A stretch of DNA of 64,000 bases from an uncultured Bacteroidota bacterium (GCA_963717445.1 OY970334.1:3891406-3955405), one strand, 5' to 3'. Shown: positions 37,533 through 63,541, counted from the stretch's first letter. Translations and numbers: made by a program. The notes: generated by a model from the sequence alone, not told the origin.

Positions 37533-37539
37533 ATTATCG

Positions 37540-37980: not shown

Positions 37981-38126
37981 GGAAACATTAATCTTGTTGG
38001 CACGTTTATACCATGGTGGTTACAAAACCCGTACCAATCATTTTATTTAGACTTAATCTAAATAAATATAATGAGGATGGCGATGTGAGTCAATGAAAAT
38101 CTTTGAAAATGTGCAAATTTCGTAAA

Positions 38127-38155
38127 TTGGACTAAATTAGTCTTGTATAGTCCAA
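38127..38155. promoter_or_regulatory. inverted repeat upstream of the fur-feo operon (candidate operator)
   Basis: TTGGACTA-N13-TAGTCCAA, with an inner GACTA-AAT-TAGTC palindrome. About 150 bp upstream of the fur start. Confidence 0.35.
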
Positions 38156-38264
38156 ATAATTTCATTGCAGACTTGGCATCTAATTCGTATATTTAACAGG
38201 AAAACTATCCCAGATTCTGGAAATCACAAATAGCTTCATTTTAAAGAGGATAAAAGAAAGATCA

Positions 38265-39026: not shown

Positions 39027-39064
39027 GAAATCCTTTTTCAAATGAGAAAATTATCTTTACGCTG

Positions 39065-39904: not shown

Positions 39905-40019
39905 GCTTACCTGCGAAAATAGACTGTTTTCGCAAGTTTTTACTTGACTCTGTTCCAAAAATATATTTATCTTATAGCTAGAATAGGTTAAGTAAACCCT
40001 TAAAAGGAAAAACTAAAGG

Positions 40020-41132
40020 ATGGCTTCTAAGTCAAGGTATTTAAGAGGGAGGGCTATAGTCCCCGAGCCAATCACAAAGGACGTAAGTATTGGCCTGCTC
40101 GTGGATTCCTATTTTCAGGCCTATAATGCCGGTCGATTACGAGAAGCTTGCCAACTTTTTGTGAAAAAGTACCTGGATCCAGACGTTACAATTGGGATGA
40201 CTATCACCGGCGCGCTCACTCCTGCTGGTTTAGGTGGCTCGTGCATCGTGCCGTTAATGAAAGCTGGATTTGTGGATTGGATTGTCAGCACAGGAGCAAA
40301 TTTATACCATGATACACACTTTGCGATCGGAAAAACGCTTCACCAGGGAAATCCTTTTATCGATGATCGGGTGCTGCGCAGGGAAGGCGTGATCCGTATT
40401 TACGACATCTTGTTCGACTATGATGTTCTTCTTTCTACGGATGCGTTTTATCGAAAAATAATAATGTCCGCTGAATTTCAAAAGCCGTTAAGCACTGCTG
40501 AATTCCATTTCAAAGTCGGAAAATACGTTTATGAGCGGGAAAAAGCCTTGGGAATCAAAAGAAGCAGCGTTTTAGCCTCCGCCTATAAGTATGGTGTTCC
40601 AATTTATACCTCTTCGCCAGCAGACAGCTCAATTGGAATGAATGTAGCAGAGCAGCAAATTGCGGGCAATAAGCTTAGCTTTGACACGCTTGCCGACGTA
40701 AATGAGACCGCTTCCATTGTTTTTAATGCAAAAAGAAGCGGTGGAAAGAGCGCCGTGCTGATATTTGGGGGAGGGTCACCCAAGAACTTTATTCTTCAAA
40801 CCGAACCACAAATACAAGAGGTACTGGGTATTGAGGAAAAAGGTCACGACTATTTCATTCAGATCACGGATGCGCGTCCGGATACAGGCGGGCTTTCCGG
40901 GGCAACACCGTCCGAGGCCGTCAGTTGGGGAAAAATTGATCCCGACAAGCTGCCGGATGCGGTAGTGGCCTATTTGGATTCGACAGTTGCAATGCCGATC
41001 CTCACGTCTTATGCGCTTGCAAAACACAAACCGCGAAAGCTAAAACGCCTCATTGATCACAGGGTTGAGAATATTGAGAAGCTGAAAAAGGAATATTTCA
41101 GGGTAAAAGATAAACGAAAGTACGCAACGTAA
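40020..41132 (+). CDS. deoxyhypusine synthase-like protein
   Basis: 370 aa with DHS-like core ([35 protein letters not shown]). Confidence 0.6.
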
Positions 41133-41187
41133 TAAAAAACTCGTCAGATTTGGTCTGACATAACTCTAACTTTTTGAGGAGGTATCA

Positions 41188-41394
41188 ATGAGCCGCTACA
41201 GTGAACTTGTGGATCTTGTTCATAGTTTTGAGAAAGACTTCATAAAATTTTACGATAAAGGAAACAAATCTGCTGGGACACGTGTCCGGAAGTCAATGAA
41301 TGAACTGAAGAGAAAGGCGCAAGAAATCCGGAAAGAAGTGCAGGAAGTAAAGGCGCAAGCAAAGGACGAAGCTCCCACAACGCCGGCAATGTAA
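41188..41394 (+). CDS. histone H1-like small basic DNA-binding protein
   Basis: 68 aa, Lys/Ala-rich, with YDKGNKSAGTRVRKSMNELKRKAQEIRKE, as in Bacteroidota histone-H1-like proteins. Followed by a strong terminator. Confidence 0.7.
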   Translation: MSRYSELVDLVHSFEKDFIKFYDKGNKSAGTRVRKSMNELKRKAQEIRKEVQEVKAQAKDEAPTTPAM

Positions 41395-41412
41395 TTATTA
41401 ATTGCCTATTTT

Positions 41413-41443
41413 AAAAAAACGGAGGCTATCCTCCGTTTTTTTT
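41413..41443 (+). terminator. rho-independent terminator
   Basis: AAACGGAGG-CTAT-CCTCCGTTT followed by TTTTT. Confidence 0.85.
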
Positions 41444-41525
41444 GTACCTCTCCTGACTCTATTTTGCCGTTAGCGCTTTCCTTACGTATATTTCTAGGGA
41501 ACATATTGTTCAAGAGCTCGTCTAA

Positions 41526-42155
41526 ATGATTGAATCCAATAACATACCGCAGCGGATGGTTAACCAGGCAGTTGTTAGCGTTACCGATTCTTCTCTTGAC
41601 CAGCAGAGTGATGATGTCCTCATCACCCTTTTTCAGAGCGGGGAAGAGGGAGCGTTCCGATTTCTCGTTGAACGATACAGCCAGCGAGTGAGGAATCTGA
41701 TTTATTCAATTTTTAACGAGTCGTCAATTGTTGACGATATAGCACAGGAAGTTTTTATCCGTGTGTATGAAGCGTTGCCGAGGTTTAGGTTTGAATCCTC
41801 ATTTTACACATGGTTGTACCGCATCACTGTCAACAAAAGCCGTGATGAATTGCGGAAAAAGAGGGCGCGAAGGTTTTTTTCTCTCCATTCGATGCTCAAT
41901 GCCTCGAACGCTGAGTTACAATCAAAAATCAGAGTTTTCCCTGAAGATGGTTCGGCAAAAGAACTCGTTAATAAAGGGTTGCAGCAACTTCCCGAAAAAT
42001 TCCGTATTCCGATCATCCTAAAGGATATCGATGGATTGTCATACGAAGAAATGGCGGAGATCATGCAGTGCGAGGTCGGCACGGTGAAATCGCGGCTCTC
42101 GCGCGCACGTGCGATGATGCGCAAGATCTTAACGCCATTGCTTGATGAACATTGA
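41526..42155 (+). CDS. ECF-type RNA polymerase sigma factor
   Basis: Sigma2 (FRFLVERYSQRVRNLIYSIF…DIAQEVFIRVY…YTWLYRITVNKSRD) and sigma4 (LSYEEMAEIMQCEVGTVKSRLSRAR) regions. Confidence 0.85.
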   Translation: MIESNNIPQRMVNQAVVSVTDSSLDQQSDDVLITLFQSGEEGAFRFLVERYSQRVRNLIYSIFNESSIVDDIAQEVFIRVYEALPRFRFESSFYTWLYRITVNKSRDELRKKRARRFFSLHSMLNASNAELQSKIRVFPEDGSAKELVNKGLQQLPEKFRIPIILKDIDGLSYEEMAEIMQCEVGTVKSRLSRARAMMRKILTPLLDEH

Positions 42156-42177
42156 TTGTTAAGGAAGGAACCGCTCG

Positions 42178-42702
42178 ATGAAATCAATTTCTACAAAAAA
42201 ACTGCAAAGGACGCTGTCTCTTTACATTGATGATGCGCTTGACGAAGGGGCCAAAGTCCGCTTTGAGGAATACCTTGCCGGCAATCCCGACGTTGCATCG
42301 GAATTACAAGCATGGAAGGAACAGCGGGAACTTTTGAAATCCAAGCCGGGCGTTCAGCCGAATGAATGGTTTTGGCAAAAGCTCTCCATTCGTTTGGAGC
42401 AACAAGAGAAAAAGCCGGAGACTCTTTATCCGTTCTCCCGGAAGTACCTGCCTCTTGGCGCGACCCTTACCGTGCTTGTCGCTGCATTTGCCGGAGTGTT
42501 AGTATTTCAGCAGAGATTGTTGTTGACGAGATTTTTTTCAGAAAAAAAGGGGCAGGTGCAACAGCTCTACCAGGGAAACATTTTGCAGGGGAAACTGTTG
42601 CCGCTGTTTACCAATCTCAATAAGGATCAAGTTTTGCAGTTTGCGTTGTTCGGAACGCTGCCCCTCGAATGCACAGGCAAAAACCGCATTGCGGGTGGAT
42701 GA
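42178..42702 (+). CDS. putative anti-sigma factor (single-pass membrane)
   Basis: Immediately downstream of the ECF sigma. N-terminal cytoplasmic segment, one TM helix (LPLGATLTVLVAAFAGVLVF), then an extracytoplasmic tail. Confidence 0.6.
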   Translation: MKSISTKKLQRTLSLYIDDALDEGAKVRFEEYLAGNPDVASELQAWKEQRELLKSKPGVQPNEWFWQKLSIRLEQQEKKPETLYPFSRKYLPLGATLTVLVAAFAGVLVFQQRLLLTRFFSEKKGQVQQLYQGNILQGKLLPLFTNLNKDQVLQFALFGTLPLECTGKNRIAGG

Positions 42703-43615
42703 AAGCAAGGAAGACGGTGCCCGCATCGAGTTTGCAAAGAACGAAGCACAGCAACATCCACCGGTAACTGTGGAGCAGTTTTGCAGGGAAATCAACGCGA
42801 CCCCCGCTCAGCACAAATCAGTCGACTCAATCTTGTCGTCGGCAAGAGACAAAATTCAGGAATCCGTTTTCCTGGGGGAGAACAAATCGCTTGCAGTTCA
42901 CGCTGACCTTGCGAAGTTTAACCGAACGATGATGTCGCGTATCGCTGCGAGCCTGGAATTGCCCCAGCAAAAGAAGTTTCAGAAATTTCTCACGATGTCG
43001 CAATCGCCGTACACGTTTGTTATTGCTCACGCCCCGGCGGCAACTGCCCCTCTGCCGGAGCCGCGAATTCCCCGGATACCGGGGATGGAACAATTTGTCA
43101 TCATAACTCCGGACAGCTGTACGATTGCCCGCGTCAAGATCGACTTTCAGCAAATTCAACGCAATGGGGCTTTGTCGGCGCAGGAGGCGAAGTCCATGGA
43201 TGAAAGAGCGCATGCCTTGATTCGGGAATTTGCCGAACACGCTCACGGGCAGAAAAGGGTGAATTCATCACTCAGTATTTTTTCGGGTTCGGACTATTAT
43301 AGCATTAAAGTAGAGAATAATGTTTTAGAACATTCCCCCGATGCTATGCCTTTCGAAGTCATTGCCCGTGCTCCCCGGGCAGTTCAGTTCCAATACGAGT
43401 TGCATCAAATGCCCGGCGTCCAAAAATTTTTTAATGAAGATTCCGAGCCTTCGGACCACATTTTTCAGAATGTTCCTCCCGGCGCATGGAGAAAAAGTTC
43501 AACCCGCGGGCGTGCCATCGACCTTGACTCCATTATCAGCGCTCCGCGGGACAGGAAATCTCAGCGACAACTGGATCAAGGCAAAAAAAGATACGATAAT
43601 CCGTTCGAGCTATAG
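42695..43615 (+). CDS. hypothetical protein, third gene of the ECF sigma unit; possibly a frameshifted C-terminal domain of the anti-sigma factor
   Basis: ORF in a +1 frame overlapping the anti-sigma 3' end. Candidate GTG start at 42695 in a GTGGATGA overlap. Pro/Ala-rich linker (APAATAPLPEPRIPRIPG). Confidence 0.45.
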   Translation: MDESKEDGARIEFAKNEAQQHPPVTVEQFCREINATPAQHKSVDSILSSARDKIQESVFLGENKSLAVHADLAKFNRTMMSRIAASLELPQQKKFQKFLTMSQSPYTFVIAHAPAATAPLPEPRIPRIPGMEQFVIITPDSCTIARVKIDFQQIQRNGALSAQEAKSMDERAHALIREFAEHAHGQKRVNSSLSIFSGSDYYSIKVENNVLEHSPDAMPFEVIARAPRAVQFQYELHQMPGVQKFFNEDSEPSDHIFQNVPPGAWRKSSTRGRAIDLDSIISAPRDRKSQRQLDQGKKRYDNPFEL

Positions 43616-43847
43616 AACATCATACAGCAACGCTGCGATTCTAAAGAAAGAGCAACATCTCTGGAGTGAGTTTGTGTAAAGACCCGCGAATCAATAATTC
43701 TGTATTCGATCAGCAGATCATTGGCACCTTGAAGAATTCAGATGTTACGCGTGGTACGTCATGGCAGGGAAACTTAGGGGCGCCGTTGGTAGAGGATGGG
43801 CTGGAAAATCTCTTTCGAATGTCTTAACGATTCCGTGGCATTTAATG

Positions 43848-43884
43848 AAAAACCCATCACAATGTCTCATGATGGGTTTTTTTA
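43848..43884. terminator. bidirectional rho-independent terminator
   Basis: AAACCCATCA-N10-TGATGGGTT flanked by an A-run and a T-run, between the hypothetical gene (+) and rpsU (-). Confidence 0.8.
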
Positions 43885-44088
43885 TTACATCTTTTCTTCT
43901 GCATCCGCACGCTGCGAGCGCCGAATAGCCTTGACCTTTTTCATCCGTTTTTTCACCGATGGTTTCGTGAAAAACGTACGTTTTTTGAATTCCTTCAATA
44001 CGCCCGACCGCTCGTATTTTTTCTTGAAGCGCTTTAACGCTCGGTCAATCGGTTCATTTTCATTAACAACGATGCCGACCAAAAACAA
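43885..44088 (-). CDS. rpsU: 30S ribosomal protein S21
   Basis: VVNENEPIDRALKRFKKKYERSGVLKEFKKRTFFTKPS is the S21 signature. The exact start is uncertain. Confidence 0.85.
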   Translation of the reverse strand: MFLVGIVVNENEPIDRALKRFKKKYERSGVLKEFKKRTFFTKPSVKKRMKKVKAIRRSQRADAEEKM

Positions 44089-44127
44089 TCACCTCCTCAA
44101 ATTTGCATTACGCTAGAGTAAATCAAA

Positions 44128-44499
44128 TCATTCTGCCGGCAGGTTTTCTATCAAACGGCGCGACCCGAGTTTTTCGAAAGTGACAAGAATTGCCCGTCCG
44201 CCGCTCGACGTTTTTTCCTTTCCCGTGACTTTTCCCATATCGTCCCAATCGGAATGATAAATCAATTCTCCGACCGTATAACTTCGTTCCGGTGAATAAC
44301 TGATGCAGTCTTCTTTGCTGAATTTTATGACGTTATTTTCTGCCGGGCGTTTCAAGGTGTCGATCATTGTGCTGTGATGGCACCGAGTGCATCTGTACCA
44401 CACCTTGTTCCCTTCGCCTTCCATCGAGCCGACAATAGCCATCTTCGCTTCTTTATTACATGATGCACAAAAATGCAAAACGTATTTTGTTTTACTCAT
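44128..44499 (-). CDS. zinc-ribbon hypothetical protein
   Basis: CASC…CTRCHH Cys pairs. Likely starts at the internal Met (MSKTKYVLHFCASC). Confidence 0.45.
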   Translation of the reverse strand: MSKTKYVLHFCASCNKEAKMAIVGSMEGEGNKVWYRCTRCHHSTMIDTLKRPAENNVIKFSKEDCISYSPERSYTVGELIYHSDWDDMGKVTGKEKTSSGGRAILVTFEKLGSRRLIENLPAE

Positions 44500-44779
44500 G
44501 AGTAAAACTCCCTTCACCTTCAAAAATCTTTTGATTCAAAAGAAAAACGTCGTGATGAAAAATTGGCAGGTAAAACAACCTCGAAGAGTTCTGGTCGTCT
44601 GCAATTCATAATTAAAATTAAACAAACAATGCCTCTAAGTCAAGCATATTTTTGGGAGGTTGGTGCTTCTTCCTGCATCTCGCCGCATGCAAATAAAGAC
44701 ATGATGGTATAGTGTTTATCGTTAATCATCCTTGATATTCGACTCATTTTATGGTAAATTCTTTACATAAAGTGGTTTT

Positions 44780-46640: not shown

Positions 46641-49600
46641 TCATTTCCCGACAAGAATAAACCCGCTCCATTTTGATGGAAAAGCTGTTGATCGGTGGCG
46701 GATCATTCGTAATTTTGATTTGCGCAATGCTGAAGAAAAGGAGTCTCCTTCAAGCACGTGGCTGTAGAATTCTACCATGAGTGTATTCGTTTGGTTGTCA
46801 AACACCTTCCACAATGAGAAAATGATATTCCGAGCGCCTGAATAAAAGAACCCGCGCGTCATTGCTATCACTCCCTCTCCTTTGACAAACTTTCCTAAGC
46901 CGCTTTCGCAACTGCTGAGAACAAGTAGGTCTGCGTTGAGACTTAAATTATACATCTCGCTGGCGTATAATATGCCGTCTTCGGCGGCCGATGAATTTTT
47001 AGGCTGAGAAAAGAGAAGCATGGAGAGTTGAGGATGTTCTTCATTGATATACCCATGAGTTGCGATATGGATGCAAGAATATTTTCCTACATTCATCTTA
47101 AAATTTTCTTCAGTAGCGCTGTTATACAAGAAACTCGCTCCGTGCATTCCCTTCTGCTGAAAGTTGCCGGCTACTAAAGCAACTTCTTGTTCAGAATACT
47201 TTAATTCGCTGAACCTTTTACCGTCGACAGTAATCGAGCGAAGGGCAGTCGGGCTTTTCTCAAGTGCCTGGGAGTTTGAAAGAAATATTCCATTGCTGTC
47301 GACATCCCGGAAAACAGGCGCAAACCCAACGAAGCTTGGATGATTTCCAGTCGATGAGTCTATTTGGAGAAGTCGGTTTAAGTAAAAAGAAGAGGAGTAA
47401 GAATATGAAATCTCATACGATTTCACCAGATAATCCAATTTTGTGAAGTCGATCTCTTCGTTTAGCCGGTGAGGAATTCGGGTGATGAGGGCTTCAAACG
47501 GAAGATAATACAGCATGCCATCCGGGATGATGACGAGCCTGGTTTTGCCCGCCAATGTTTTTGCCAATGGACGGACGAGAAGATCGTACAGATCGCTTCC
47601 GGTTCGCACATATTCCGACACCCCAACGGTTTTTATTGCCTGGTAAAAAGTCGATGTAAGACTGTTGAAATTTGCCGGAATCGGAACTGCAAGAACATCA
47701 AACGACGACTTCGTGATCGTAAAAATCGCGAGTGAAGTTCTGCCGATAAAATACTCGATGACAGCTGTTTTTTTATCGATCGCATCTTGTATGTCACGAA
47801 TTGTTGCCGTATGACTTTTGTACTTTAACTCATAATAGTGCGGGTAAACATTCTCAAGGAGCGCCGACAATTTCTGCGATTCATTGTTAAGAGCGAAGCA
47901 CTTGTCCTGCAGTAAAATAATTTTTGTGCTGTCTTTTCCTTCCTTTTTGTCGTTTTCTTTCTGGAGTTGAGTTTCGTTATAGGCTAGATCGATCTTTAAC
48001 ATTCTCTCCTTCTCGATGATAGAGTCGGGAATGTTGGCGAATCGTTTTGCTTCAGAATCGTGAAGGCCGTCGAGTAATACGTTTGCCTTGCTGTTTTCCG
48101 CAAAATAGAAGGCCGATTCCTGGTAACGCGGATCTCTCGTGGCGTTAAATAACTTCAAGCTGGCGCGAACTGCATTTTGAAATAACGAGTAGCTTTGTTC
48201 TTCAAGGAATAGTTTTGAACTCTCGGTAGTAATTTTTTTTCTCAGCTCATTGAGAATTGTTACGGTGCAATCATATGTTGCAAGGCTAGCTTGCAGGTCT
48301 TTCAAGGCATGAGACTTGTACGCATAATATTTTTCTAACGCCAGCGCCTTTACCGAAAGTATCTCTATGAGATCTTTGCTGTTTGCAATGCTGCATTCTT
48401 TTGGGTTAACGTAAATTGATGTGTCTGTAAATTCCTGTAATAGTGCATTTGTTGATTGTTGATAATACTTTAACGCTGCAGTAAAATTGTTTAAATGTAA
48501 ATAAACATCTCCCAAGCCTTTTAATGTCGCAGCTAGCTGGGGCCGGTTTGGATCGGGCAAATTGTTGTGAAGGTGAAGAGCCTTGTTGTAATACTTGAGT
48601 GCTTGATCGAAATTGTTCATTTTCGAATAGACCAAACCAATTTCCGAGTAGAGGTTGGGAATGTCGCTTCGATCATATGATTCTTTTAAGCGCGAACGTA
48701 TTCTCAAAGCTTCTTGCAAATATTTTAATGAAACGGCATACTCGCCACGCTTCCTATAGATATTGCCTAATATTTCATATGTGAATGCCAGTTCTGGATG
48801 ATCCTTTCCTGTTATTTTCCGCTGAAGGGTCAATGCGCCTTTAGATAAAAGAATGGCGTTGGCTAAGTCATTCTTATCTGCATAAACCGATCCTAACTGT
48901 CTCGTTTCTAATGCAACGAATGAATGATTGCTCCCCACATATTTCTTCTCTAATGAGATGGCTTTCTGGTAAAATTCTATTGACTTATCAAAATCACCCT
49001 CGGTTTCGTATAACCTGCCTAACTTCGAGTAGCAACTAGCAAGATATAAATTATCTTCTCCCAAAATGTTCCGATAAAGCTCTACGGCTTTAGTAAGGTG
49101 TAAGATCGCCTGATCGCTCTCGCCCTTTTCTGAGAAGACCCATCCGATCAGGTTTTCGCAATCCGCAGTGACAGAGGCATATTTTCTTTCACTATTGTTG
49201 GTGAGTGAATCTGCACGTTTGAAATAGCTCAAAGCAGAATCAAATTCACTTCTCAAAAAAAATACAAGTCCGATTCCCGAAATAGTAATCACCCGATTAA
49301 ATTGATCACTGTCATTTTGAACATTGTATATTCGTAATGCGTTGTTGAAAGGCTCAACTGCTTGGTCATAATTGCCTTTTTTCATATTTGCAATACCTAA
49401 CAGGTAATTACTTGCTGCGACGTATTTATGATCCTTTCCTAATTTGTTTTCTCTGATTTTCTTACCCTTCAAAATATTTTCAATCGCTAGATCAAATTTC
49501 TCCCTATCGATATATAAAAGGCCAATGATACTGTATGTAAGCGCGCATTCGAGATTATCCGGTTGCAGATTTTGTTCTTCTACATCTCGAGCCCGATGTA

Positions 49601-49898
49601 AAATCGCTTCCATCGAATCGAGGGCGACTTTTCTCGACAGGCAGTCCGCAATAATGTTCAAGCAATGGACATATCGTTCCCAACTTTTTGTTTTCTCAAA
49701 AATTTTAGCGGCTTTTTGGAGATCGATGATAGAACTGTCGTACTCTACTTGAAGATAAAATTCCATCGCTTGTTTGACGAGAATTTCCGCTTGCGCGGTG
49801 TCCTCCGGCGCCGGTTGCGCATGGCAATATTGTGCAATCAGGAATATGCTTGCAATGGACGCACTTCGAAGAGAGTATGTTCCGAAAATACTTCTCAT
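46641..49898 (-). CDS. secreted TPR-repeat protein with C-terminal CHAT (caspase-like) protease domain
   Basis: 1085 aa. N-terminal signal peptide (MRSIFGTYSLRSASIASIFLIAQYCHAQ). Many TPR-like repeats (…A…Y…G.Y..A). C-terminal CHAT with His (CIHIATHGY) and Cys (LVLSSCESGLG) dyad. Confidence 0.8.
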   Translation of the reverse strand: MRSIFGTYSLRSASIASIFLIAQYCHAQPAPEDTAQAEILVKQAMEFYLQVEYDSSIIDLQKAAKIFEKTKSWERYVHCLNIIADCLSRKVALDSMEAILHRARDVEEQNLQPDNLECALTYSIIGLLYIDREKFDLAIENILKGKKIRENKLGKDHKYVAASNYLLGIANMKKGNYDQAVEPFNNALRIYNVQNDSDQFNRVITISGIGLVFFLRSEFDSALSYFKRADSLTNNSERKYASVTADCENLIGWVFSEKGESDQAILHLTKAVELYRNILGEDNLYLASCYSKLGRLYETEGDFDKSIEFYQKAISLEKKYVGSNHSFVALETRQLGSVYADKNDLANAILLSKGALTLQRKITGKDHPELAFTYEILGNIYRKRGEYAVSLKYLQEALRIRSRLKESYDRSDIPNLYSEIGLVYSKMNNFDQALKYYNKALHLHNNLPDPNRPQLAATLKGLGDVYLHLNNFTAALKYYQQSTNALLQEFTDTSIYVNPKECSIANSKDLIEILSVKALALEKYYAYKSHALKDLQASLATYDCTVTILNELRKKITTESSKLFLEEQSYSLFQNAVRASLKLFNATRDPRYQESAFYFAENSKANVLLDGLHDSEAKRFANIPDSIIEKERMLKIDLAYNETQLQKENDKKEGKDSTKIILLQDKCFALNNESQKLSALLENVYPHYYELKYKSHTATIRDIQDAIDKKTAVIEYFIGRTSLAIFTITKSSFDVLAVPIPANFNSLTSTFYQAIKTVGVSEYVRTGSDLYDLLVRPLAKTLAGKTRLVIIPDGMLYYLPFEALITRIPHRLNEEIDFTKLDYLVKSYEISYSYSSSFYLNRLLQIDSSTGNHPSFVGFAPVFRDVDSNGIFLSNSQALEKSPTALRSITVDGKRFSELKYSEQEVALVAGNFQQKGMHGASFLYNSATEENFKMNVGKYSCIHIATHGYINEEHPQLSMLLFSQPKNSSAAEDGILYASEMYNLSLNADLLVLSSCESGLGKFVKGEGVIAMTRGFFYSGARNIIFSLWKVFDNQTNTLMVEFYSHVLEGDSFSSALRKSKLRMIRHRSTAFPSKWSGFILVGK

Positions 49899-50430
49899 CC
49901 TACTCGGGAGTGTTCTGTGTATTGCACATTTTACACCAGGGGCACTTTGTAGGGCATGCTATCTTGTGACGGGTTATTTTAGGTCGGATGTTCCCCAGCC
50001 CCATTTAGACTCTTTCATTCAGAGCGATCAAATATTGATCAAATCAATTGTACAAAATTGGCCAGAAAGAAACAAAGCTTTTATAACCCCTGAACATCGA
50101 GGACAAATAATAAATAGGCTAGTTGAAGAATACTGATTTTGCCTAAAAAGAGAATCGAGTTTTTGTTTAGGCATTATTACTCTCAATCAACAGTGATTTT
50201 TGATGTCGTTGCTAATGCTGTTTCCAAAAAAATAACTCATTTACCGCAAAGGTCGCTAAGGACGTAAGGATTTCTTCGTATTTTTACAAAAACTTCTTCG
50301 CCGCCTTAGCGTCTCAGCGGTTATAATGCAAGATTTCGAATCGGAATCGGCACTTGGTGATGAAATTTTGTAAACGTGGGTAAAAAATAAACGTTCAAAA
50401 AGGGGACATGATTGTTTAACTTCCCAATCG

Positions 50431-50480
50431 ATTGTGCAAGTCGCAGCCGCTCTCCCCCAGTGGCAGACGACTTGCACAAT
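50431..50480. promoter_or_regulatory. 13-bp perfect inverted repeat in the 880-bp divergent intergenic region
   Basis: ATTGTGCAAGTCG (50431-50443) and CGACTTGCACAAT (50468-50480) with a 24-nt G/C-rich spacer. Confidence 0.4.
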
Positions 50481-50779
50481 TCTTTCGTGACAGCGGTTTC
50501 TCCAGTGGCCCGAGCACCTCTATCTCCCACCGAGGAATGGGCTGTTCGTTGATTGGGTTATTTCATATACACATATATATATCCCGGAGTAGTTAATTTT
50601 GGAGATTATTCTTCAAAAATATTTCACTTATTGTTTCATTTTGTATGAGCGACTTTCGCTTAGGTTTGGTCAAAACCAGGCAAAAAAGTATTTTTTAATG
50701 ATAAAAGTGTTGCATAGAGGCATCCATCTTACTTATATTTTAGGCAAGGAGAAATGCCCACTAAGAGTTCTTCCACACA

Positions 50780-51187
50780 ATGACCGAACTTCTTTTCACA
50801 ACGAGAGATGTTGCCGACATGCTTCAAGTCGATAAATCGACAATCAAGCGGTGGACCGATGAGGGGAAACTGAAATGCTTTCGCACGCCCGGGGGACACA
50901 GAAAATTCCGTGCAGAGGACCTGTCCCAGTTTATGGCCGATTACAACTATAACATCTCTGCCGCGAATTTTTTACCGGTCGCTGCGAGCGACGAGGCTAT
51001 CTTGCGTGGAATGATTGTCCAGAAAGAGTTCAATGTTTTGGATTCTGTCTGCTTCTCTACGGCAATCAAAGGGAACAAGAATGATCTGCTTAAATTGTTT
51101 TCGGAAGCATACAAAAACGGAATGAGCCTGCCGTTGATGTTTGACAAAATCCTGCGTCCTACAGGTACAAAAGATATCTACTCTTAA
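50780..51187 (+). CDS. HTH (excisionase/MerR-like HTH_17) DNA-binding protein, N-terminal part of a CarH/LitR-like regulator
   Basis: TTRDVADMLQVDKSTIKRWTDEGKLKCFRTPGGHRKFRAEDLSQFM HTH, followed by a helical region. The ORF ends at 51187 and overlaps the next ORF in another frame. Confidence 0.7.
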   Translation: MTELLFTTRDVADMLQVDKSTIKRWTDEGKLKCFRTPGGHRKFRAEDLSQFMADYNYNISAANFLPVAASDEAILRGMIVQKEFNVLDSVCFSTAIKGNKNDLLKLFSEAYKNGMSLPLMFDKILRPTGTKDIYS

Positions 51188-51692
51188 CACCTCCGGTAAA
51201 TTGCTTTTATCCGAGAAGCAGTTGGCATTGAATTCGCTTTCCAATGCTATCGTTCTTCTCTCTGATATTATCGTTAAGCCCGCTCTCAACGGTAAAATTG
51301 TAATTTGCGCTATGGTTGAAAACGATTCCGACGATCTTGAATTGAAAGCGTTGGCGGTGCTGCTGGAAAGCGGGGGTTTTGAAGTGTTAAATCTCGGGGT
51401 TGGGACTTCGGCCGACTCGATTGCTCAACTTGTGAAAAACAAACAGCCGCATTTTGTTTTCCTGATGGCTTCAAATGTTCACGATGAGGAGCTTTTGGAG
51501 GATGAACACGAGAAAATCCAGAGTGAGTTGCAATCGTACGGCGGTAAGTTAATCGTTAGCGGTCCGGCGTATACTCAAGAACTTCTCACCGGCAGACTTG
51601 CCGGTTTATTCTATAAATTCTGTCCGACTTTTAAAGAGCTTACCATGGTGCAATATGAAAGAATTGAGTTGAAGAAAAAAGAAAAAGAATAG
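51141..51692 (+). CDS. B12-binding-like (Rossmann) domain protein lacking the canonical DxHxxG His; possibly fused to the upstream HTH gene (split or frameshifted)
   Basis: GKIVICAMVENDSDDLELKALAVLLESGGFEVLNLGVGTSADSIAQLVKNKQPHFVFLMASNVH matches the cobalamin-binding domain layout, but ENDSDD replaces GDxHDIG. A TGA in this frame at 51135-51137 limits upstream extension. The start codon is uncertain. Confidence 0.55.
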   Translation: MTKSCVLQVQKISTLNTSGKLLLSEKQLALNSLSNAIVLLSDIIVKPALNGKIVICAMVENDSDDLELKALAVLLESGGFEVLNLGVGTSADSIAQLVKNKQPHFVFLMASNVHDEELLEDEHEKIQSELQSYGGKLIVSGPAYTQELLTGRLAGLFYKFCPTFKELTMVQYERIELKKKEKE

Positions 51693-52255
51693 AAAGGAAT
51701 GAATAATTAAGAATGAAGAATTAATAATTAAGAATTAAGAATTGAAAAAATATCAACTTATTATGTAAGATGTATCTTTGTTTAACTTATAGTAAATGAT
51801 TGAGAAGAAGGAAACTATAATTGCAAATACCAGTTTACGTCTACACACTTTTGGAACAGATTATAAAAAATGCCCTCCTTGCTTGAGCGTACGTACCCTT
51901 TCCATTTCAATAAAGAGACAAAATACCGGCCCGGACAAATTGAGTGAATTCTTGCTCTTGGCTACAACTGCTATACGAAAAACAGTAGGTGTGAACGATT
52001 GTTTTCATCATCAAAGCAATGGCAATGGAGCGCCGGATGATTTTCTCTCCCTTTTTATTGACAGGAGAGCGATTTTTTATTATTTTCATCTTTATTATTT
52101 TTAAAAACAAAGTCACATTCCGATGGAACAAAACAGCGAGAGTGTTCGTCCAATTGGATTGAGGGAGAATTATTACGGTTTGTTGTAAAGTACATTTTTT
52201 TACCTCGTGCAATGCCACTTCAATTGTCTCCGAAATATAATTTAATGAGTGTACT

Positions 52256-53203
52256 ATGTCTATTACCGTTCGTAATCTAACCAAGTTGTACGGTGAAGAG
52301 AAAGCGATCGATGACATTTCGTTTGACGTAAAGACGGGAGAAATTCTCGGCTTCCTCGGACCTAATGGTGCCGGCAAAACGACGACGATGAAAATCATAA
52401 CCTGCTACATGCCCCCGAGTGCCGGGAGTGTGACAGTTGATGACTATGACATCGGCGACCATTCGCTTGAGGTGCGGCGCAAGATCGGTTATTTGCCCGA
52501 ATTGAACCCGCTTTATCTAGATATGAATGTTCTGGAATATCTCGAATACTCCGCTCAACTTCATAAAATGCAAAAACTTCAGATCCGCCAGCGAATGCGG
52601 GAAATGATCGAGGTGTGCGGATTATCCGGAGTTCGGCATAAAGACATCGGCGAGCTGTCGAAAGGATACCGCCAGCGAGTAGGGCTGGCACAGGCGATGA
52701 TTCACGACCCCGACGTGCTCATTTTAGACGAGCCGACGAGCGGGCTTGACCCGAACCAAATTGTCGAGATTCGGAATCTCATCCGCAAACTCGGCAGCGC
52801 AAAGACGGTGATTCTTTCCACGCATATTCTTTCCGAAGTACAGGCAACGTGCGACCGGGTTATTATCATCAACGAGGGAAAAATTGCCGCGGATGGAACC
52901 CCCGATCAACTCCAGCATGAATTCCGCGGCTCCGATATCATCTCCATCGAGCTGAAAGCAAACGTTGAAAACGGCATGACCGAAATTTTTCCGAAAATTA
53001 AATCGCTCGCGAATGTGGAAAACGTTCAGTATCAGAACCCTTCACCGGGGATACACCGGTTGGTCATTACGGCGGGGAAGGGGTCCGATATTCGCGAGGA
53101 CCTTTTCCGCCAGGCAGTGAGCGAACAATGGGTGTTGCTTGAAATCCACCGTGAAGCAACAAGCCTTGAAGAAGTGTTCCATAAGCTCACGACTGTGAAT
53201 TAA
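52256..53203 (+). CDS. ABC transporter ATP-binding protein (GldA-like)
   Basis: Walker A GPNGAGKTT, LSKGYRQRVGLAQAM signature, Walker B LILDEPTSGLD. Confidence 0.9.
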   Translation: MSITVRNLTKLYGEEKAIDDISFDVKTGEILGFLGPNGAGKTTTMKIITCYMPPSAGSVTVDDYDIGDHSLEVRRKIGYLPELNPLYLDMNVLEYLEYSAQLHKMQKLQIRQRMREMIEVCGLSGVRHKDIGELSKGYRQRVGLAQAMIHDPDVLILDEPTSGLDPNQIVEIRNLIRKLGSAKTVILSTHILSEVQATCDRVIIINEGKIAADGTPDQLQHEFRGSDIISIELKANVENGMTEIFPKIKSLANVENVQYQNPSPGIHRLVITAGKGSDIREDLFRQAVSEQWVLLEIHREATSLEEVFHKLTTVN

Positions 53204-53231
53204 TCGTGCTATTCATTGACGGGATTTGTGT

Positions 53232-53843
53232 ATGGGTTCAGAAATGAGCTGCTCGATGAAATATGGCGGGAAGGTATTCAAAGGGAAAGCCCTGCTTGAG
53301 ACCGACGAGCTGATCTTTCGCGGCGAACAACGGCTGACGATTCCGTTCAAGAAAATGAAGTCTGTTGAAGCCAACGATGGAGAACTGACGATTGTCTTCG
53401 ATGGCGGCACAGCTTCATTTGTGATCGATACAGCAGCCGAGAAATGGGAAGAAAAAATTTTACATCCAAAAAGTATTCTGGAAAAAATTGGCGTAAAGCA
53501 CGATTCGCGGGTGAGCGTTGACGGTGTGACGGACAAGGAGTTCCTGGATCAATTGAGAGAGAAAACAGATGATGTCTCAGTCACGGAGCTGCAAAGAGAG
53601 TCCGATATCATTTTGTATGCGGCGGACAGCAAAAAAGAGCTTGTCAAGCTAAAGGGAATTAAACAATTTCTCAAAAAGAATGGGGCCATTTGGATCGTCT
53701 CGTCGAAAGGAAAGCAGGCAAAGATAAAAGACACCGACGTTATGGCAGCGGGAAAAAAGGCGGGCCTTGTCGATACAAAAGTCGTTGGATTTTCCGAGAC
53801 ACATACGGCATTGAAGTTTGTGATACCGGTAAACAGTAGGTAG
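53232..53843 (+). CDS. hypothetical protein
   Basis: ORF between the ABC ATPase and permease genes. No recognised motif. Start uncertain (ATG at 53232, 53244 or 53256). Confidence 0.4.
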   Translation: MGSEMSCSMKYGGKVFKGKALLETDELIFRGEQRLTIPFKKMKSVEANDGELTIVFDGGTASFVIDTAAEKWEEKILHPKSILEKIGVKHDSRVSVDGVTDKEFLDQLREKTDDVSVTELQRESDIILYAADSKKELVKLKGIKQFLKKNGAIWIVSSKGKQAKIKDTDVMAAGKKAGLVDTKVVGFSETHTALKFVIPVNSR

Positions 53844-53935
53844 TAAGCAGTAAGCAGTAAACAGTAAACAGTCATAACGCACCGATACCTAATAGTCAAC
53901 ACCTAAAACCTTTCATTTACAATCTACAACGAACC

Positions 53936-54676
53936 ATGCATTTCGATTTCACAAAATTTTTCAGCGGATATTCGAACGTCGGACCGATTTTTCGGAAAGA
54001 ATTGCGCTCGTATTTTAATTCCGCGGTAGCGTACGTTGTTATCGTCGTTTTCCTCGCCATCGTCGGATGGTTTTTTACCAGCAATCTTTTTTTAATGAAC
54101 GTCGCGTCGATGAGGATGATGTTCGAAGTCGTCCCCGCCGTATTCCTTTTCATTATCCCCGCAATTACGATGAGATTGTTGTCCGAAGAGAAAAAAACCG
54201 GGACGATAGAGCTGCTGACAACGAAACCAATTTCCGATTCCGAGATTGTCCTCGGCAAATTTTTTGCGGCGTGGACTTTGGTCGGAATTGCGATGCTGCC
54301 GACGCTTCTCTATTACATCACGATTGCGTTCCTCGGAAACATCGATAACGGCCCGGTCATCGGGGGGTATTTCGGGTTGATGCTCATGGCGGGGGTGTAC
54401 GTCGCAATCGGTTTATTCGCCTCGAGTTTAACGGACAATCAGGTTGTCGCTTTCATCCTCGGGTTCGTTTTTGTTTTTGCGCTTTATATGCTGGACAAAA
54501 TATTGTTTTATGTGCCGGAATGGATGACGACAACGGTCGAATTTCTCGGTGTTGATTTTCATCTTTCAAACATCGCGCGTGGAGTGATCGACACAAGGGA
54601 TGTTATTTATTTCCTCTCGATGCTGGGGTTCACGCTTTTGCTATCAGTCGGTTCGCTACAGAGAAGAAAATGGTAA
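53936..54676 (+). CDS. ABC-2 type transporter permease (GldF-like)
   Basis: Six predicted TM segments. Follows the ATPase. Confidence 0.8.
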   Translation: MHFDFTKFFSGYSNVGPIFRKELRSYFNSAVAYVVIVVFLAIVGWFFTSNLFLMNVASMRMMFEVVPAVFLFIIPAITMRLLSEEKKTGTIELLTTKPISDSEIVLGKFFAAWTLVGIAMLPTLLYYITIAFLGNIDNGPVIGGYFGLMLMAGVYVAIGLFASSLTDNQVVAFILGFVFVFALYMLDKILFYVPEWMTTTVEFLGVDFHLSNIARGVIDTRDVIYFLSMLGFTLLLSVGSLQRRKW

Positions 54677-54709
54677 ACAGAATTAGCATTTTTACATTGA
54701 AACGGTAAA

Positions 54710-56281
54710 ATGACGACGATGAACACAAAAAGAAATCAAGCAATCATACGGGCGTTACTGGTGCTCGGCATTCTCATCGTTGTGAACGTTATCTCGGTCC
54801 GCATTTTCGACCGGCTTGACCTCACAAAGCAGAAAGTGTACACGCTTTCAGATGCAAGTAAAAAGCTCGTGCGTTCCCTCGATGACAGAGTGACCGTCCG
54901 CGCATATTTTACCGAGGACCTTCCGTCGCCGTACAACGATAACCGGCGCGAAGTCCTGGACCTCTTAAACGAGTACAAAGCGTACGCCGGCGGCAATCTG
55001 CAATACGAATTCATCAATCCCGAAGGAGATAAGGGAGAACAAGAGGCGCAACAGCAGGGAATTCCTCCCGTGAACGTACAGGTTGTGAAGGAAGATAAGT
55101 TCGAAGTAAAGCGAGCGTACCTCGGCCTTGTGATGATGTACGAGGACAAAAAAGAAACGCTGCCGGTGATCCAAAACCTCGGGTCGCTTGAATACGACAT
55201 CAGCAGCGCATTGAAACGATTGACCACGCGCCAGAAGAAACGCATTGGTTATACGCTTGGGCACGATGAAACGGATTTGTCGACGATGAAGGAGGCGTAT
55301 CAGACGCTCTCATCACAGTATGAACTTACGCCGGTGAACTTGACTGGAAACGGAAGTGTTCCCGCCGACCTTGCGGCATTGCTCGTGATAGCGCCTCAGA
55401 AAAAATTCAACGACTCCTCAAAATTTCAGATTGACCAATATTTAATGCGGGGTGGAAAAATAGCGTTCTTGTTGAATAAAGAAAATGCAAGCCTCCAGGC
55501 GCAGTATGCTCAGCCGTTAGACCTTAACCTGGACGATCTCCTTGCCCAATACGGCACGCGTGTCAACAACGATCTCGTTCGAGATGCGCAGTGTGCAAGC
55601 GTCAATGTTGTTCAGCAGCAAATGGGTTTTACGATGCAGAGCCAGGTTCCTTTTCCGTATATGCCGATGGCATCGGGCTTCAACAAAGATAACATGATCG
55701 TCAAGGATTTGCAGAACGTGATCTTCTATTTTGTAAGTTCCATCGATACCAGTTTTGCATCTGCGAAAGGATTGAGGGAGCAAGTGCTGGTGAGTTCATC
55801 AAAACGGAGCGGGCGGCAAACCGGCTTCATCGCGATCGATGCGTTCCACCGCTATACCCCCGATGAGCTTGCAGAATCGAATATTCCGCTGGCCGTGGTC
55901 GTGGAAGGATCATTCAAAAGTTTGTACGCGAACAGGCCGATGCCGGGGCTTATGACATCATCCTCGCCCATGGTGTCGAGCCCTGAAACACGGATCATCG
56001 TTGTTGGAGACGGTGATTTTATGAAAGACGATTTTTCGCGGAACCCCGGCAATCTTACGTTCTTCGTTAATATGGTCGACTATCTTGCGGATGACGCGGG
56101 ATTAATAACCATACGGTCGAAGAACGTTGCGATGCCTCCGCTTGACCAGATCTCGGACGGCACAAAAAATCTTCTCAAGTACGGCGATCTTCTATTACCG
56201 CCCTTTGCTGTTATCGGTTATGGCCTGATTCGATGGCGAACGCGGCTTGCACGGAAAAGAGCAATGGAAGCTTCACTATAA
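54710..56281 (+). CDS. GldG-like ABC-transporter auxiliary protein
   Basis: N-terminal TM, large extracytoplasmic domain, C-terminal TM (LLLPPFAVIGYGLI). Size and position are typical of GldG family. Confidence 0.65.
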   Translation: MTTMNTKRNQAIIRALLVLGILIVVNVISVRIFDRLDLTKQKVYTLSDASKKLVRSLDDRVTVRAYFTEDLPSPYNDNRREVLDLLNEYKAYAGGNLQYEFINPEGDKGEQEAQQQGIPPVNVQVVKEDKFEVKRAYLGLVMMYEDKKETLPVIQNLGSLEYDISSALKRLTTRQKKRIGYTLGHDETDLSTMKEAYQTLSSQYELTPVNLTGNGSVPADLAALLVIAPQKKFNDSSKFQIDQYLMRGGKIAFLLNKENASLQAQYAQPLDLNLDDLLAQYGTRVNNDLVRDAQCASVNVVQQQMGFTMQSQVPFPYMPMASGFNKDNMIVKDLQNVIFYFVSSIDTSFASAKGLREQVLVSSSKRSGRQTGFIAIDAFHRYTPDELAESNIPLAVVVEGSFKSLYANRPMPGLMTSSSPMVSSPETRIIVVGDGDFMKDDFSRNPGNLTFFVNMVDYLADDAGLITIRSKNVAMPPLDQISDGTKNLLKYGDLLLPPFAVIGYGLIRWRTRLARKRAMEASL

Positions 56282-59460: not shown

Positions 59461-59925
59461 ATGCTAAAAGAAGACCTTAGTGAAGTGCTGAGAAAGCATC
59501 CTTTCGTGGGCGACCTGGATGACAAATATCTTCAACTCCTCGTTGGATGTGCGAAGAATGTGCACTTCCAGGAAGGCGAATATCTTTGTCACGAAGGGGA
59601 GGCTGCCGACTTGTTCTTCCTCATCCGGACCGGAAGAGTTGCAATAGAAATTCACGCCGGACACAAAGGGAAGCGGAGGATTCAAACCATCGGACCCGGT
59701 GAAGTGCTCGGTTGGTCATGGTTGATTTCTCCGTACCGCTGGCACTTCGATGGTTGTGCCGTTGCTGAACTTCGGGCATTGGCTCTCGATGGGAAATGCC
59801 TTCGTACCAAATGCAACAAAGACCACGATTTCGGTTATGAAATGCTGAAACGACTGGCGGATGTTTTCCAAAGCCGCATGGAAGCTACACGCCTTCAATT
59901 ACTCGATGTCTACGGTTCACGTTAA
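59461..59925 (+). CDS. cyclic-nucleotide-binding (cNMP-binding) domain protein without DNA-binding domain
   Basis: [19 protein letters not shown]…[13 protein letters not shown] is a Crp-like beta-roll. 154 aa with no HTH. Confidence 0.65.
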
Positions 59926-59936
59926 GGAGTGACTCA

Positions 59937-60801
59937 ATGAATCAACCGGCTTTTGTTGAAGTCGAAGGGCTCGTCGACCCGATGTTGCCGCAGTTGATGT
60001 GCATCAAGAGAATTGTGTGGGAAACGGATGACACGTTTACGCTTCAGTTGGAAAACGTAGGCCGCCCTGCCGCGGAGTTCTCATTCCTGCCGGGGCAATT
60101 CAACATGCTGTATGTATTCGGGATGGGGGAATCGGCTATCTCGATTAGCTCGGATCCGTCGAAGCCAAGCATGCTCGCTCACACGATCCATCGGGTCGGA
60201 ACCGTGACCAATGCCCTTTCGCAGATGAAACGGGGTGATATCATCGGATTGCGCGGTCCGTTTGGCAGCAATTGGCCTATCGAGAAAGCGAACGGATTGG
60301 ACGTCTGCATTGTCGCCGGTGGAATCGGCCTTGCGCCTCTTCGTCCGATGCTATATTCGCTCTTTCGTAGGCGAAGAGATTACGGACGCGTATTGCTCTT
60401 ATATGGTGCGCGCAGTCCGCTCGACCTTCTCTATAGAGTAGAACTTGAACAATGGAGCAAGCAGTACCGATGTTGAAGTCTTGGTGACGGTGGACCGGAG
60501 CGATTCGACATGGAAAGGGTACATCGGTGTTGTCCCCAACCTTTTCTCGTATATCAAGCTCGATGCCCGCGCAACGATCGCGATGGTCTGCGGTCCTGAA
60601 ATAATGATGCAGTACACAATTACGGAGATTTTACGTTGCGGTGTACCGGCGGAACAAATTTATTTGTCGATGGAGAGGAACATGAAGTGCGCCGTCGGCT
60701 TCTGCGGTCATTGCCAGTATGGACCGAAATTCATCTGCAAAGATGGACCGGTCTTTCCTTTTCCTCGCATAAGCAGCTACTTCGGAAAAAAGGAAATCTA
60801 A
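59937..60801 (+). pseudogene. hydrogenase gamma subunit (HydG-like FAD/NAD-binding, 2Fe-2S) with apparent frameshift near 60465-60475
   Basis: N-terminal part 59937..60476 (FAD/NAD-binding: FTLQLEN…PGQFNML; [14 protein letters not shown]) and C-terminal part 60445..60801 (CAVGFCGHCQYGPKFICKDGP) lie in different frames. Both halves are needed for a complete subunit. Confidence 0.65.
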
Positions 60802-60802
60802 G

Positions 60803-61576
60803 ATGAAATCACGCCAACCCAAAGTCGCGATCTACAAATTCGCTTCATGCGATGGTTGCCAGCTTTCGCTCCTCGACGCGGAAGATGAACTGCTTGCCGT
60901 TGCGGGTGCGATCGACATTTCATACTTCCCCGAAGCAAGCCGCAGGGTAGTGCGAGGACCGTACGACCTCGGGCTGGTTGAGGGAAGCGTCACAACTCCG
61001 CACGACGTGGGACGTATCCGTGCAATCAGAAAAGAATGCCGCACCCTTATCACGATAGGTGCATGCGCAACGGCAGGGGGTGTTCAGGCACTGCGCAACT
61101 GGAAGGACGTGAAAGAATTTGCGCGCATTGTTTATCCGAACCCCGAGTATATTTCGACGCTTGACCGCTCCCTTCCCATAGGTTCGTTTGTCCACGTTGA
61201 TTTTGAACTTCGCGGCTGTCCGATCAATAAGCATCAACTCATTGAAGTACTCGTCGCGTTTCTTCACAAAAGGAAACCGAACATTCCTTCACACAGCGTT
61301 TGTATCGAATGCAAGCTCAAAGGGAATGTCTGTGTGATGGTCGCCCAAGGGACACCCTGTCTCGGACCCGTTACGCAGGTTGGATGCGGGGCGCTGTGCC
61401 CGTCGTTTCAACGGGGATGCTACGGGTGTTTCGGCCCGATGGACAGCGCCAATACTGCCTCACTCAGCAAACAATTCGCCGAGGGGGGAGCGACGGAGCT
61501 CGAAATAAAACTTGCGTTTCGCAGTTTCAATGCATATGCCGAAGCATTCCGAAGGGAGAGTGACTCCCATGAATGA
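60803..61576 (+). CDS. [NiFe]-hydrogenase small (delta) subunit, group 3 type
   Basis: [18 protein letters not shown]… is the NuoB-like 20-kDa family. Confidence 0.85.
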
Positions 61577-62855
61577 TAAAACAATAAAAGTCGATTACCT
61601 GGCGCGCGTTGAGGGGGAAGGTTCGGTCTATGTGAAGATCAAAAACAACGAGGTCGCGGATGTCAAATTCAAAGTCTTCGAGCCGCCGCGATTTTTTGAA
61701 GCGTTCTTACGGGGAAGGAAATTTTCCGAGGCGCCGGACATTACTGCACGTATATGCGGGATCTGCCCGATTGCGTATCAAATGAGCTCAGTGCACGCGA
61801 TGGAAAATGCCTTCAACATTTCGGTTGACGGGCAGCTTCGCGCTCTTCAACGTCTGCTATACTGTGGAGAGTGGATCGAGAGCCATGTCCTTCATGCGTA
61901 CATGCTCCATGCTCCGGACTTTCTCGGTTATGAAGACGTTCTGCAATTGGCCAAAGACCATTCTGCGGTAGTACAGCAGGCCTTAAGGATGAAGAAAGTC
62001 GGGAATGATCTTGTCACTCTCCTCGGTGGAAGAGAAATTCATCCCATCAATGTGCGGGTCGGAGGATTCTATAGGGTTCCTGCAAAAAATGAATTTCTTC
62101 CGATCAGCGAGAAATTGAAATGGCTGCGTGATGCAGCCATTGAAATGGTCCGTTGGAGTGCCTCGCTTCCGTTCCCGGAGTTTGAACGAGATTACGAGTT
62201 TGTTGCGCTCTCTCATCCTAATGAGTATCCGTTTAATGAAGGGCGTCTTATCTCCAACAAGGGGCTCGACATCAATGTCAAAGAGTATGAATTTTATTTC
62301 CACGAAGAGCATGCTTCATATTCAAATGCGTTGCAGTCGGTGTTGAAAGAGCGGGGATCGTATCTCGTTGGCCCGTTAGCCCGGTTCAATCTGAACTATG
62401 AGAAGCTCACACCGACGGTGAAAGAACTGGCACAAGAAGTTCATTTTCTTCCTATCGTCCGAAATCCGTTCAAGAGCATCGTTGCGAGGTCAATCGAAGC
62501 GCTCTATGCGTGCGAAGAGGCGTTACGTATCATCGATCAATATGAGCCTCCTGAAAAACCTGCAGTCGATGTGACGCCGAGGCCGGGACTCGGTTTCGCC
62601 TGCACGGAAGCACCTCGTGGGATTCTTTATCACCGTTACCGAATCGGGGAGAACGGCATAATCACCGATGCCAAAATTGTTCCTCCCACCTCGCAAAACC
62701 AGCGTTCAATTGAACAAGACCTTCGTAACGTCGTTGTCAAGAATATAGCGATGCCGAAGGAACAGATGACATTGCTTTGCGAGCAAACCGTGCGCAATTA
62801 TGACCCCTGCATTTCCTGTGCGACGCATTTTTTGACGTTGGAATTCGAAGAATAA
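61569..62855 (+). CDS. [NiFe]-hydrogenase large (alpha) subunit, group 3b-like
   Basis: N-terminal [11 protein letters not shown] (RxCGxC) and C-terminal DPCISCATH (DPCxxCxxH) Ni-Fe ligands. Start ATG overlaps the small-subunit 3' end. Confidence 0.9.
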
Positions 62856-63038
62856 ATCCGAGGCAATGGTGTGATGGAACTCTAAAGAACAACGATGAAA
62901 GGGGCTTTTGAGTTGTCTCTCAGAAGCAAACAAACACAAGAGACACTAAGCGGCAAAGAAGAGCGAACACCTCTTTTCTGTGAGTCTTGGTGTCTTTGCG
63001 TTTAACATGGTACCGCAAATCCAAGACGGAGGTGTATT

Positions 63039-63536: not shown

Positions 63537-63541
63537 AAGGT

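Follow-up and report, generated by a model that had tools for sequence, protein, structure and literature searches.

Locus and gene organisation

The window analysed here is a 64,000-nucleotide stretch of DNA from an uncultured Bacteroidota bacterium (GCA_963717445.1, OY970334.1:3891406–3955405). On its plus strand, two open reading frames lie between positions 50780 and 51692. ORF1 (50780–51187) encodes 135 residues with a helix-turn-helix (HTH), and ORF2 (51141–51692), in the +1 frame relative to ORF1, encodes 183 residues with a B12-binding fold. They share 47 bp, read in different frames, and the ORF2 frame has an upstream stop, the TGA at 51135–51137. This arrangement, with its overlap and its stop codon, had been described in the original prediction and was borne out by the ORF coordinates, the Pfam matches and the sequence itself. 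The accompanying statement that any fusion requires a frameshift between 51138 and 51187 was likewise correct, the lesion being an extra G at 51164/51165.

A conceptual fusion was generated by dropping one base near 51164. With one G of 51164–51165 removed, the joined gene for a CtMerR/CarH-type regulator (50780–51692, plus strand) comprises 912 nt including the stop codon, and its 303-residue product is 100% identical to the database protein P0001 over 100% of the length. When searched against the NCBIfam models, the fusion matched corrinoid-protein models across the junction, which neither ORF did alone; MtaC was matched at residues 94–226 and CarH at residues 6–231. Since these matches span the junction, the break lies inside a domain and not between two genes. 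The homologues of the fusion comprised 226 single ORFs of ~300 residues, a few short ones in the lists being left out, and one continuous match to the regulator was found at 80 of 80 genome loci. Positions 50780–51692 hold one gene, not two.

Upstream of this gene, a promoter-like TTGCAT-N18-TATATT (50710–50739, plus strand) ends ~40 nt before the ATG and is conserved in an upstream alignment of five relatives. We regard it as a putative promoter. It was not listed by a consensus scan, its first hexamer fitting at three of six positions only, and the promoter and terminator counts of that scan were no higher than those obtained with shuffled sequences.

Domain architecture and fold of the intact protein

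Three modules, all encoded on the plus strand, make up the intact protein. Residues 1–55 (50780–50944) form the N-terminal DNA-binding domain, a BldC/excisionase-type MerR-like HTH whose invariant motif is C33-x3-PGGHRKF. This is followed by a helical region plus four-helix bundle spanning residues ~71–163 (50990–51270), for which the AlphaFold2 model has helices at residues 71–80, 84–96, 100–112, 117–137 and 143–163. The bundle spans the frameshift site, so that neither ORF alone holds the complete domain. Residues ~170–280 (51288–51620) constitute a Rossmann-type cobalamin-binding-like domain, assigned from the Pfam B12-binding score and the Foldseek match to 8jbs_B.

In Pfam, ORF1 matched HTH_17 (50.7 bits), together with MerR_1 (30.8–32.5 bits; gathering threshold 21.6) and MerR (29–30 bits; gathering threshold 28.2). 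A MerR-type N-terminal DNA-binding domain is therefore present, and its best fit is the HTH_17/BldC subtype. In NCBIfam, ORF1 lay nearest to BldC and excisionase-type HTHs, with HTH_BldC scoring 60–61.5 bits (cutoff 77), and ORF2 lay nearest to corrinoid proteins. The Pfam B12-binding model (PF02310), against which the original prediction had proposed to align the C-terminal part, scored 30.4–31.2 bits (31.2 for ORF2) at a gathering threshold of 32.1, so that this check came close to the threshold and stayed below it. The NCBIfam CarH equivalog NF052513 scored 25.3 bits, its cutoff being 400.

A family profile was built from the alignment of 118 members and searched against the PDB with hmmsearch. 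The top match was CtMerR (8JBS/8JBT; E 2.3e-39) over the full length (residues 6–275 versus 18–295), followed by methionine synthase and corrinoid proteins and then by BldC, which was matched in the HTH alone (chains 6amk and 6ama; E ~1e-10). The AlphaFold2 model of the intact protein had a pLDDT of 87.5, and its best Foldseek match was 8jbs_B, with a target-normalised TM-score of 0.91 and an rmsd of 1.9 Å, followed by Thermus CarH (TtCarH), photocobilins and MetH. In the predicted model, the Rossmann fold of the B12-binding family is clearly retained. The CarH/LitR-like layout of the original prediction, with HTH, helical bundle and Rossmann B12-binding fold, is real, as attested by the full-length profile match and the Foldseek superposition onto CtMerR.

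Loss of the photoreceptor signature

The role of CtMerR as an AdoCbl photoreceptor has been confirmed by experiment (PMC11796333). Light-responsive CBDs are defined by the elements GxxW, EH, GxxH and GxxxP (the SignatureFinder signature; PMC11796333), and CarH homologues need both ExHx2G...SxV/T...GG and Wx9EH (PMC8156234). The His of E/DxHx2G is the lower axial ligand, and Wx9EH caps the adenosyl group (PMC8156234). Residue equivalences were read off after aligning CtMerR residues 140–240 without gaps to window residues 120–220. For GxxW, CtMerR G153/W156 corresponds to S133/N136; for EH, E166-H167 corresponds to K146-Q147; for GxxH, G201/H204 corresponds to N181/D184; and for GxxxP, G226/P230 corresponds to G206/S210. 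The signature in the window protein reads SxxN, KQ, NxxD and GxxxS: all four elements fail, and G206 alone is kept.

The equivalent of the adenosyl-capping Wx9EH of CarH and CtMerR is encoded at 51186–51221, from N136 to K146-Q147. The degenerate B12 loop, E180-N-D-S-D184-D-L-E187 (51318–51341), corresponds to E200-G-D-L-H204-E-I-A207 of CtMerR and to DxHxxG of MetH. Within it, the ENDSDD motif occupies residues 180–185 of the joined protein (51318–51335), and the B12 motif reads D182-S-D184-D-L-E187, with the axial His replaced by D184 and the Gly by E187. The SxV motif persists as S231-N-V233 and GG in part, as S260-G261. With neither ExHx2G...SxV/T...GG in full nor Wx9EH, the protein is not a CarH by the published definition (PMC8156234); on its sequence, it is a degenerate CtMerR-type relative.

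These replacements extend to the family. Among 118 members, neither the Trp nor the EH occurred (0/118 each), the axial-His position was taken by Asn in 40, Asp in 28, Arg in 19 and His in 12, and the Gly of DxHxxG was a conserved Glu in 97. According to these alignments, the cobalt-ligating His has truly been lost, clade-wide. The replacement of this residue within ENDSDD had been recognised by the original prediction, which understated the loss, the adenosyl-cap motif (W and EH) being gone too. Of the two features that it had weighed for orthologues, the single intact ORF was found and the conventional DxHxxG was not. The clade has probably descended from CtMerR-type AdoCbl photoreceptors, with loss of the cap Trp and Glu-His, of the axial His and of the Pro in GxxxP.

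Other positions are kept. C33, D71, C91, G114, D122, K140, G199 and G206 are invariant in the family, and E145, C176 and C281 are near-invariant. C33 and C176 are also found in CtMerR; among the cysteines, which were considered as a possible Fe–S or metal site, only C91 and C281 are family-specific. When the corrected window gene was compared with two orthologues of 83–84% identity, dN/dS was 0.07–0.08 overall and 0.09–0.11 in the B12-like half. Values of 0.07–0.11 indicate that the protein is functional, and by this measure of sequence change the degenerate domain is functional in the lineage and under strong purifying selection.

Distribution and genomic context

The scan, performed with one genome per species, recovered 80 loci. 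The window clade was defined as those loci with at least 35% identity to the window protein. It comprises 37 loci, nearly all from MAGs labelled Bacteroidota, Bacteroidetes, Chitinophagaceae or Ignavibacteria, with two to three paralogues in several genomes. Homologues with the full signature, at 24–28% identity, were found in Myxococcales, Acidobacteriota, Ignavibacteria and Bacteroidota. In an exhaustive representative library, 120 clusters were retrieved at E ≤ 1e-30; the 150 best-scoring representatives included 136 full-length sequences, which carried W, EH and His in 94 cases, none of these in 27 and part of them in 15.

A second degenerate group, of HTH_17–CBD proteins, was observed in Acidobacteriota (L051, L056, L061, L062, L067, L068 and L079). 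Its members often have Cys where the cobalt-ligating His would lie, contain no Trp and have ER or EK in place of EH. Judged by its sequences, this group seems to have departed from the photoreceptor signature a second time, independently.

The downstream surface-protein context was read from loci L014–L046 and L009. At 25 of the 37 clade loci, a signal-peptide DUF11-repeat protein (~640 residues) is encoded directly after the regulator on the same strand, and at 22 loci there follows a ~1050-residue protein with a Big_1/invasin-like N-terminal region. At L009, the one locus examined further, a gene for 4029 residues comes after these two. This adjacency suggests that the ancestral role of the family looks like the control of a cell-surface locus. 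The window subclade represents a different paralogue, flanked on one side by a divergent CHAT-TPR gene and on the other by an ABC-transporter cluster, which we take to resemble the gliding-motility GldA/F/G transporter.

No carotenoid, cobalamin or LOV genes were seen among the neighbour genes examined, and an Rfam search of 49700–52400 on both strands (E ≤ 1) gave no match, including none to a cobalamin riboswitch. A minus-strand GCCACUG, presumably the core of the cobalamin-riboswitch B12-box, was dismissed as a chance occurrence, since relatives do not conserve it and read GCCUCUG. The blocks ATATATATATCC and TGGAG, which are conserved upstream, were considered as the regulator's operator and not accepted, as they persist in species without the regulator.

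A conserved structured element of ~140 nt was observed on the minus strand at 50419–50562, with conserved boxes at ~50577–50610. It consists of a closing stem around a long hairpin, whose loop CUGGGGGAGAG is invariant, and a second, variable hairpin, and it had no match in Rfam. Across 16 distinct sequences, 98% of the cells were paired and eight pairs showed compensatory changes; none of 500 shuffles reached the observed score, slid controls paired at 30–40%, and the minus strand was the better fit. The element lies 200–520 nt upstream of the CHAT-TPR gene, on the same strand, wherever that gene falls within the fetched locus, and it persists where the regulator gene was lost. Its role as a family-wide partner of the regulator was rejected, as a covariance model run on 84 loci matched the closest relatives only. 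We consider it a candidate small RNA or mRNA leader. Between this element and the CHAT-TPR start codon, a 35-nt block (50042–50076) retains 91–94% identity in L091, L092, L097, L099 and L103 despite diverged surroundings, and is possibly a CHAT-TPR promoter or regulatory site.

Origin of the frameshift

The frameshift is caused by GG in place of a single G at 51164–51165 on the plus strand, where the window reads ACAGGTACA and four independent assemblies read ACAGTACA. P0001 is intact on these four contigs (L001–L004), which derive from two NCBI assemblies (GCA_049589135.1 and GCA_052916205.1) and two Logan assemblies (of the runs ERR11523672 and SRR28023822). Over window positions 49103–54961 they are 99.87–99.95% identical to the window in DNA sequence, and the G is the sole gap. 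In all, independent near-identical contigs cover ~31.2 kb of the window (13573–20805, 31085–44727, 49103–54961 and 59562–64000). Within this span there are ~15 substitutions, no deletions and three indels, all of them single-base insertions private to the window (42668, 51164 and 60467), each of which duplicates the preceding base and frameshifts a coding sequence. Three private base-duplicating insertions, each breaking a gene, point to consensus errors, which probably stem from a long-read assembly. One contig longer than 1 Mb encodes the neighbouring window proteins in intact form and no intact P0001, in agreement with a long-read source; short-read assemblies recovered this population only as pieces of 1.5–14 kb. 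A pattern allowing either allele found no match in the JGI metagenomes, from which the population is absent. The extra G, private to the window assembly, is very likely an assembly artefact, that is, a consensus error, and the organism therefore very probably makes the full-length 303-residue protein.

The two other split genes, both on the plus strand, were characterised in the same manner. At 60467, where the window reads TACCGA with an additional C, a NAD_binding_1 domain is divided between ORFs 59937–60476 and 60445–60801 (profile positions 53 and 57); two independent contigs, L005 and L006, read TACGA and carry the intact gene for 287 residues. Its product is a FAD_binding_6/NAD_binding_1/DHODB_Fe-S_bind subunit, encoded upstream of a [NiFe]-hydrogenase pair. 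At 42668, ORFs 42178–42702 and 42641–43615 are separated by an extra A (TCGAATGC in the window versus TCGATGC in L106), and the gene is intact on the independent contig L106, where it encodes 478 residues. This protein is encoded downstream of an ECF sigma factor and had no match in Pfam.

Alternatively, the extra G could be a real and very recent frameshift in the strain, which would make the regulator a fresh pseudogene. The gene is dispensable in the lineage, and the locus is labile. In L090, L093, L100, L102 and L105 the regulator is deleted from the stretch that separates the CHAT-TPR gene from the ABC gene, and a remnant only, consisting of the promoter and the first ~19–36 codons, is left in L091, L097, L099 and L103, with the flanking genes and the structured element remaining in both sets. 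Moreover, L007 and L010 retain the gene and are no nearer to the window than these species. This lability means that a real inactivating mutation in the strain would not be far-fetched. Nevertheless, the same population (99.9% identity) yields the intact gene and an identical protein in four independent assemblies, two other, unrelated window genes contain the same kind of private base-duplicating insertion, three frameshifts against ~15 substitutions in 31 kb are atypical of closely related genomes, and dN/dS is 0.07 among the species that keep the gene. We therefore consider the pseudogene, one of three options listed in the original prediction, possible but quite improbable.

A genuine two-protein system, with an HTH protein and a B12-like protein, or a programmed +1 frameshift joining both, is scarcely credible. 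Its sole support is that both ORFs are open in the window and overlap. Against it, full-length homologues are never split, as found at all genome loci; the break inside the helical bundle leaves neither product with complete domains; the near-identical DNA is devoid of the extra base, so that frameshifting is unneeded there; and there is no slippery run at ACA-GGT-ACA. Neither a conserved split nor a slippery site was found in the orthologues, the homologues being single ORFs and the near-identical contigs having no extra base. Both variants were rejected on the grounds that this base is missing from near-identical DNA and that full-length homologues are unsplit. The split, which had been considered as a possible feature of the system, gives way to the single intact 303-residue ORF of orthologues and near-identical contigs.

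The division of a CarH-like regulator over two ORFs is almost certainly a product of the assembly; the same window contains two more such artefacts, and other "split genes" from the same source deserve suspicion.

Comparison with related regulators

CtMerR from Chloracidobacterium thermophilum (WP_157850694; 8JBS/8JBT) is a full-length homologue, with 27% identity to the window protein, and acts as a transcription factor and as a photoreceptor that depends on AdoCbl (Yu et al., FEBS J 2024, PMC11796333). Both proteins have the same unusual HTH (RTPGGHR(K/R)F), the helical bundle and the Rossmann CBD, but CtMerR has the light-response signature, which the window protein lacks except for G226, kept as G206. 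Class I CarH/LitR proteins, represented by Thermus thermophilus CarH (5C8D/E/F) and Myxococcus xanthus CarH, display the same three-module architecture and fold, with a MerR-related N-terminus; they are photoreceptor-repressors that form tetramers in an AdoCbl-dependent manner and leave the DNA in the light. The structural match of the window protein to CarH is strong (Foldseek probability 1.0, E ~1e-11), whereas sequence similarity is detectable in the HTH alone (E 0.003). Unlike CarH, the window protein lacks Wx9EH and both the His and the Gly of ExHxxG, and has no carotenoid genes nearby.

The closest functional analogy to the window protein, as judged by comparison, is CarA from Myxococcus xanthus, a B12-independent CarH paralogue that keeps the fold, has lost Wx9EH and acts as an oligomeric repressor (PMC8156234). 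Repression by CarA is relieved by the antirepressor CarS (PMC8156234). The likeness has limits: CarA keeps the canonical ExHxxG and can bind B12, whereas the window protein is without this motif; the HTH subtypes differ; and no CarS-like antirepressor was identified at the window. Class II LitR proteins (PplR/PmlR from Pseudomonas) belong to the LitR/CarH family, do not bind B12 and are effectors of short LOV photoreceptors; their C-terminal part serves oligomerisation, and their activity is set by the LOV partner protein (PMC9758184). They keep the four-helix bundle only. The window protein has the entire Rossmann domain in addition, lacks an adjacent LOV gene and comes from an unrelated lineage. 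Finally, BldC from Streptomyces (6AMA/6AMK) has the same MerR-like HTH subtype, but is a small protein consisting of the HTH domain only, and the HTH_BldC score of the window protein lies under the family cutoff of 77.

Functional interpretation

We propose that the HTH of the regulator would bind DNA and that the degenerate B12-like module would serve as an oligomerisation or signal-input scaffold. This scaffold would work independently of His-on AdoCbl photochemistry, as in CarA from Myxococcus and class II LitR from Pseudomonas, so that the regulator is most likely B12-independent in a manner comparable to these. We infer the oligomerisation, the regulatory targets and the B12 independence, the latter from missing residues only. 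Among the three options listed in the original prediction, a degenerate non-B12 sensor fits best, provided that it is applied to the intact protein, in which the signature residues are missing. As a whole, the explanation that a single gene, interrupted by an erroneous G, encodes a CtMerR/CarH-type regulator independent of B12 photochemistry is likely to be right.

The intact protein might instead be a non-canonical binder of a corrinoid or other tetrapyrrole, either base-on or through a ligand such as the invariant Cys91, and sense cobalamin, light or redox. This reading concerns function only, is compatible with the split as an artefact, and appears unlikely to us. The fold and the pocket-forming elements kept in the predicted model are consistent with it, as are the retained SxV and most of GG, the family-specific invariants C91, D122, K140 and E145, the near-invariant C176 and C281, and the axial His found in 12 relatives. 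However, the axial-His position varies freely among Asn, Asp, Arg and His, which argues against a conserved role in metal ligation, and the Gly that makes room for the nucleotide tail is the conserved Glu of 97 of the 118 members. In the CtMerR study, a CBD carrying Arg in place of the His was modelled with limited room for AdoCbl, predicted to be a non-photoreceptor and used as a negative control (PMC11796333); the same replacement is common in the window family (19/118). In addition, no cobalamin riboswitch or other Rfam family was found nearby, and no B12 gene among the neighbour genes examined.

B12-independent regulation thus remains the preferred reading. The clade, which covers at least 37 species-level genomes, may, tentatively and with considerable doubt, be viewed as an uncharacterised offshoot of AdoCbl photoreceptors whose cobalamin-binding fold, with C91, D122, K140, E145 and C281 as family-specific residues, was re-purposed for another ligand or for redox sensing. 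So far as the literature was searched, the clade-wide degenerate B12 domain is uncharacterised, and it represents a variation of a familiar theme.

The clade is without every residue that defines B12 photoreception, yet strongly conserved. After CarA and class II LitR, it would be the third independent example of the B12 photoreceptor fold being re-used without B12 photochemistry, and its sequences may serve as useful negative cases for the signature-based mining of cobalamin photoreceptors.
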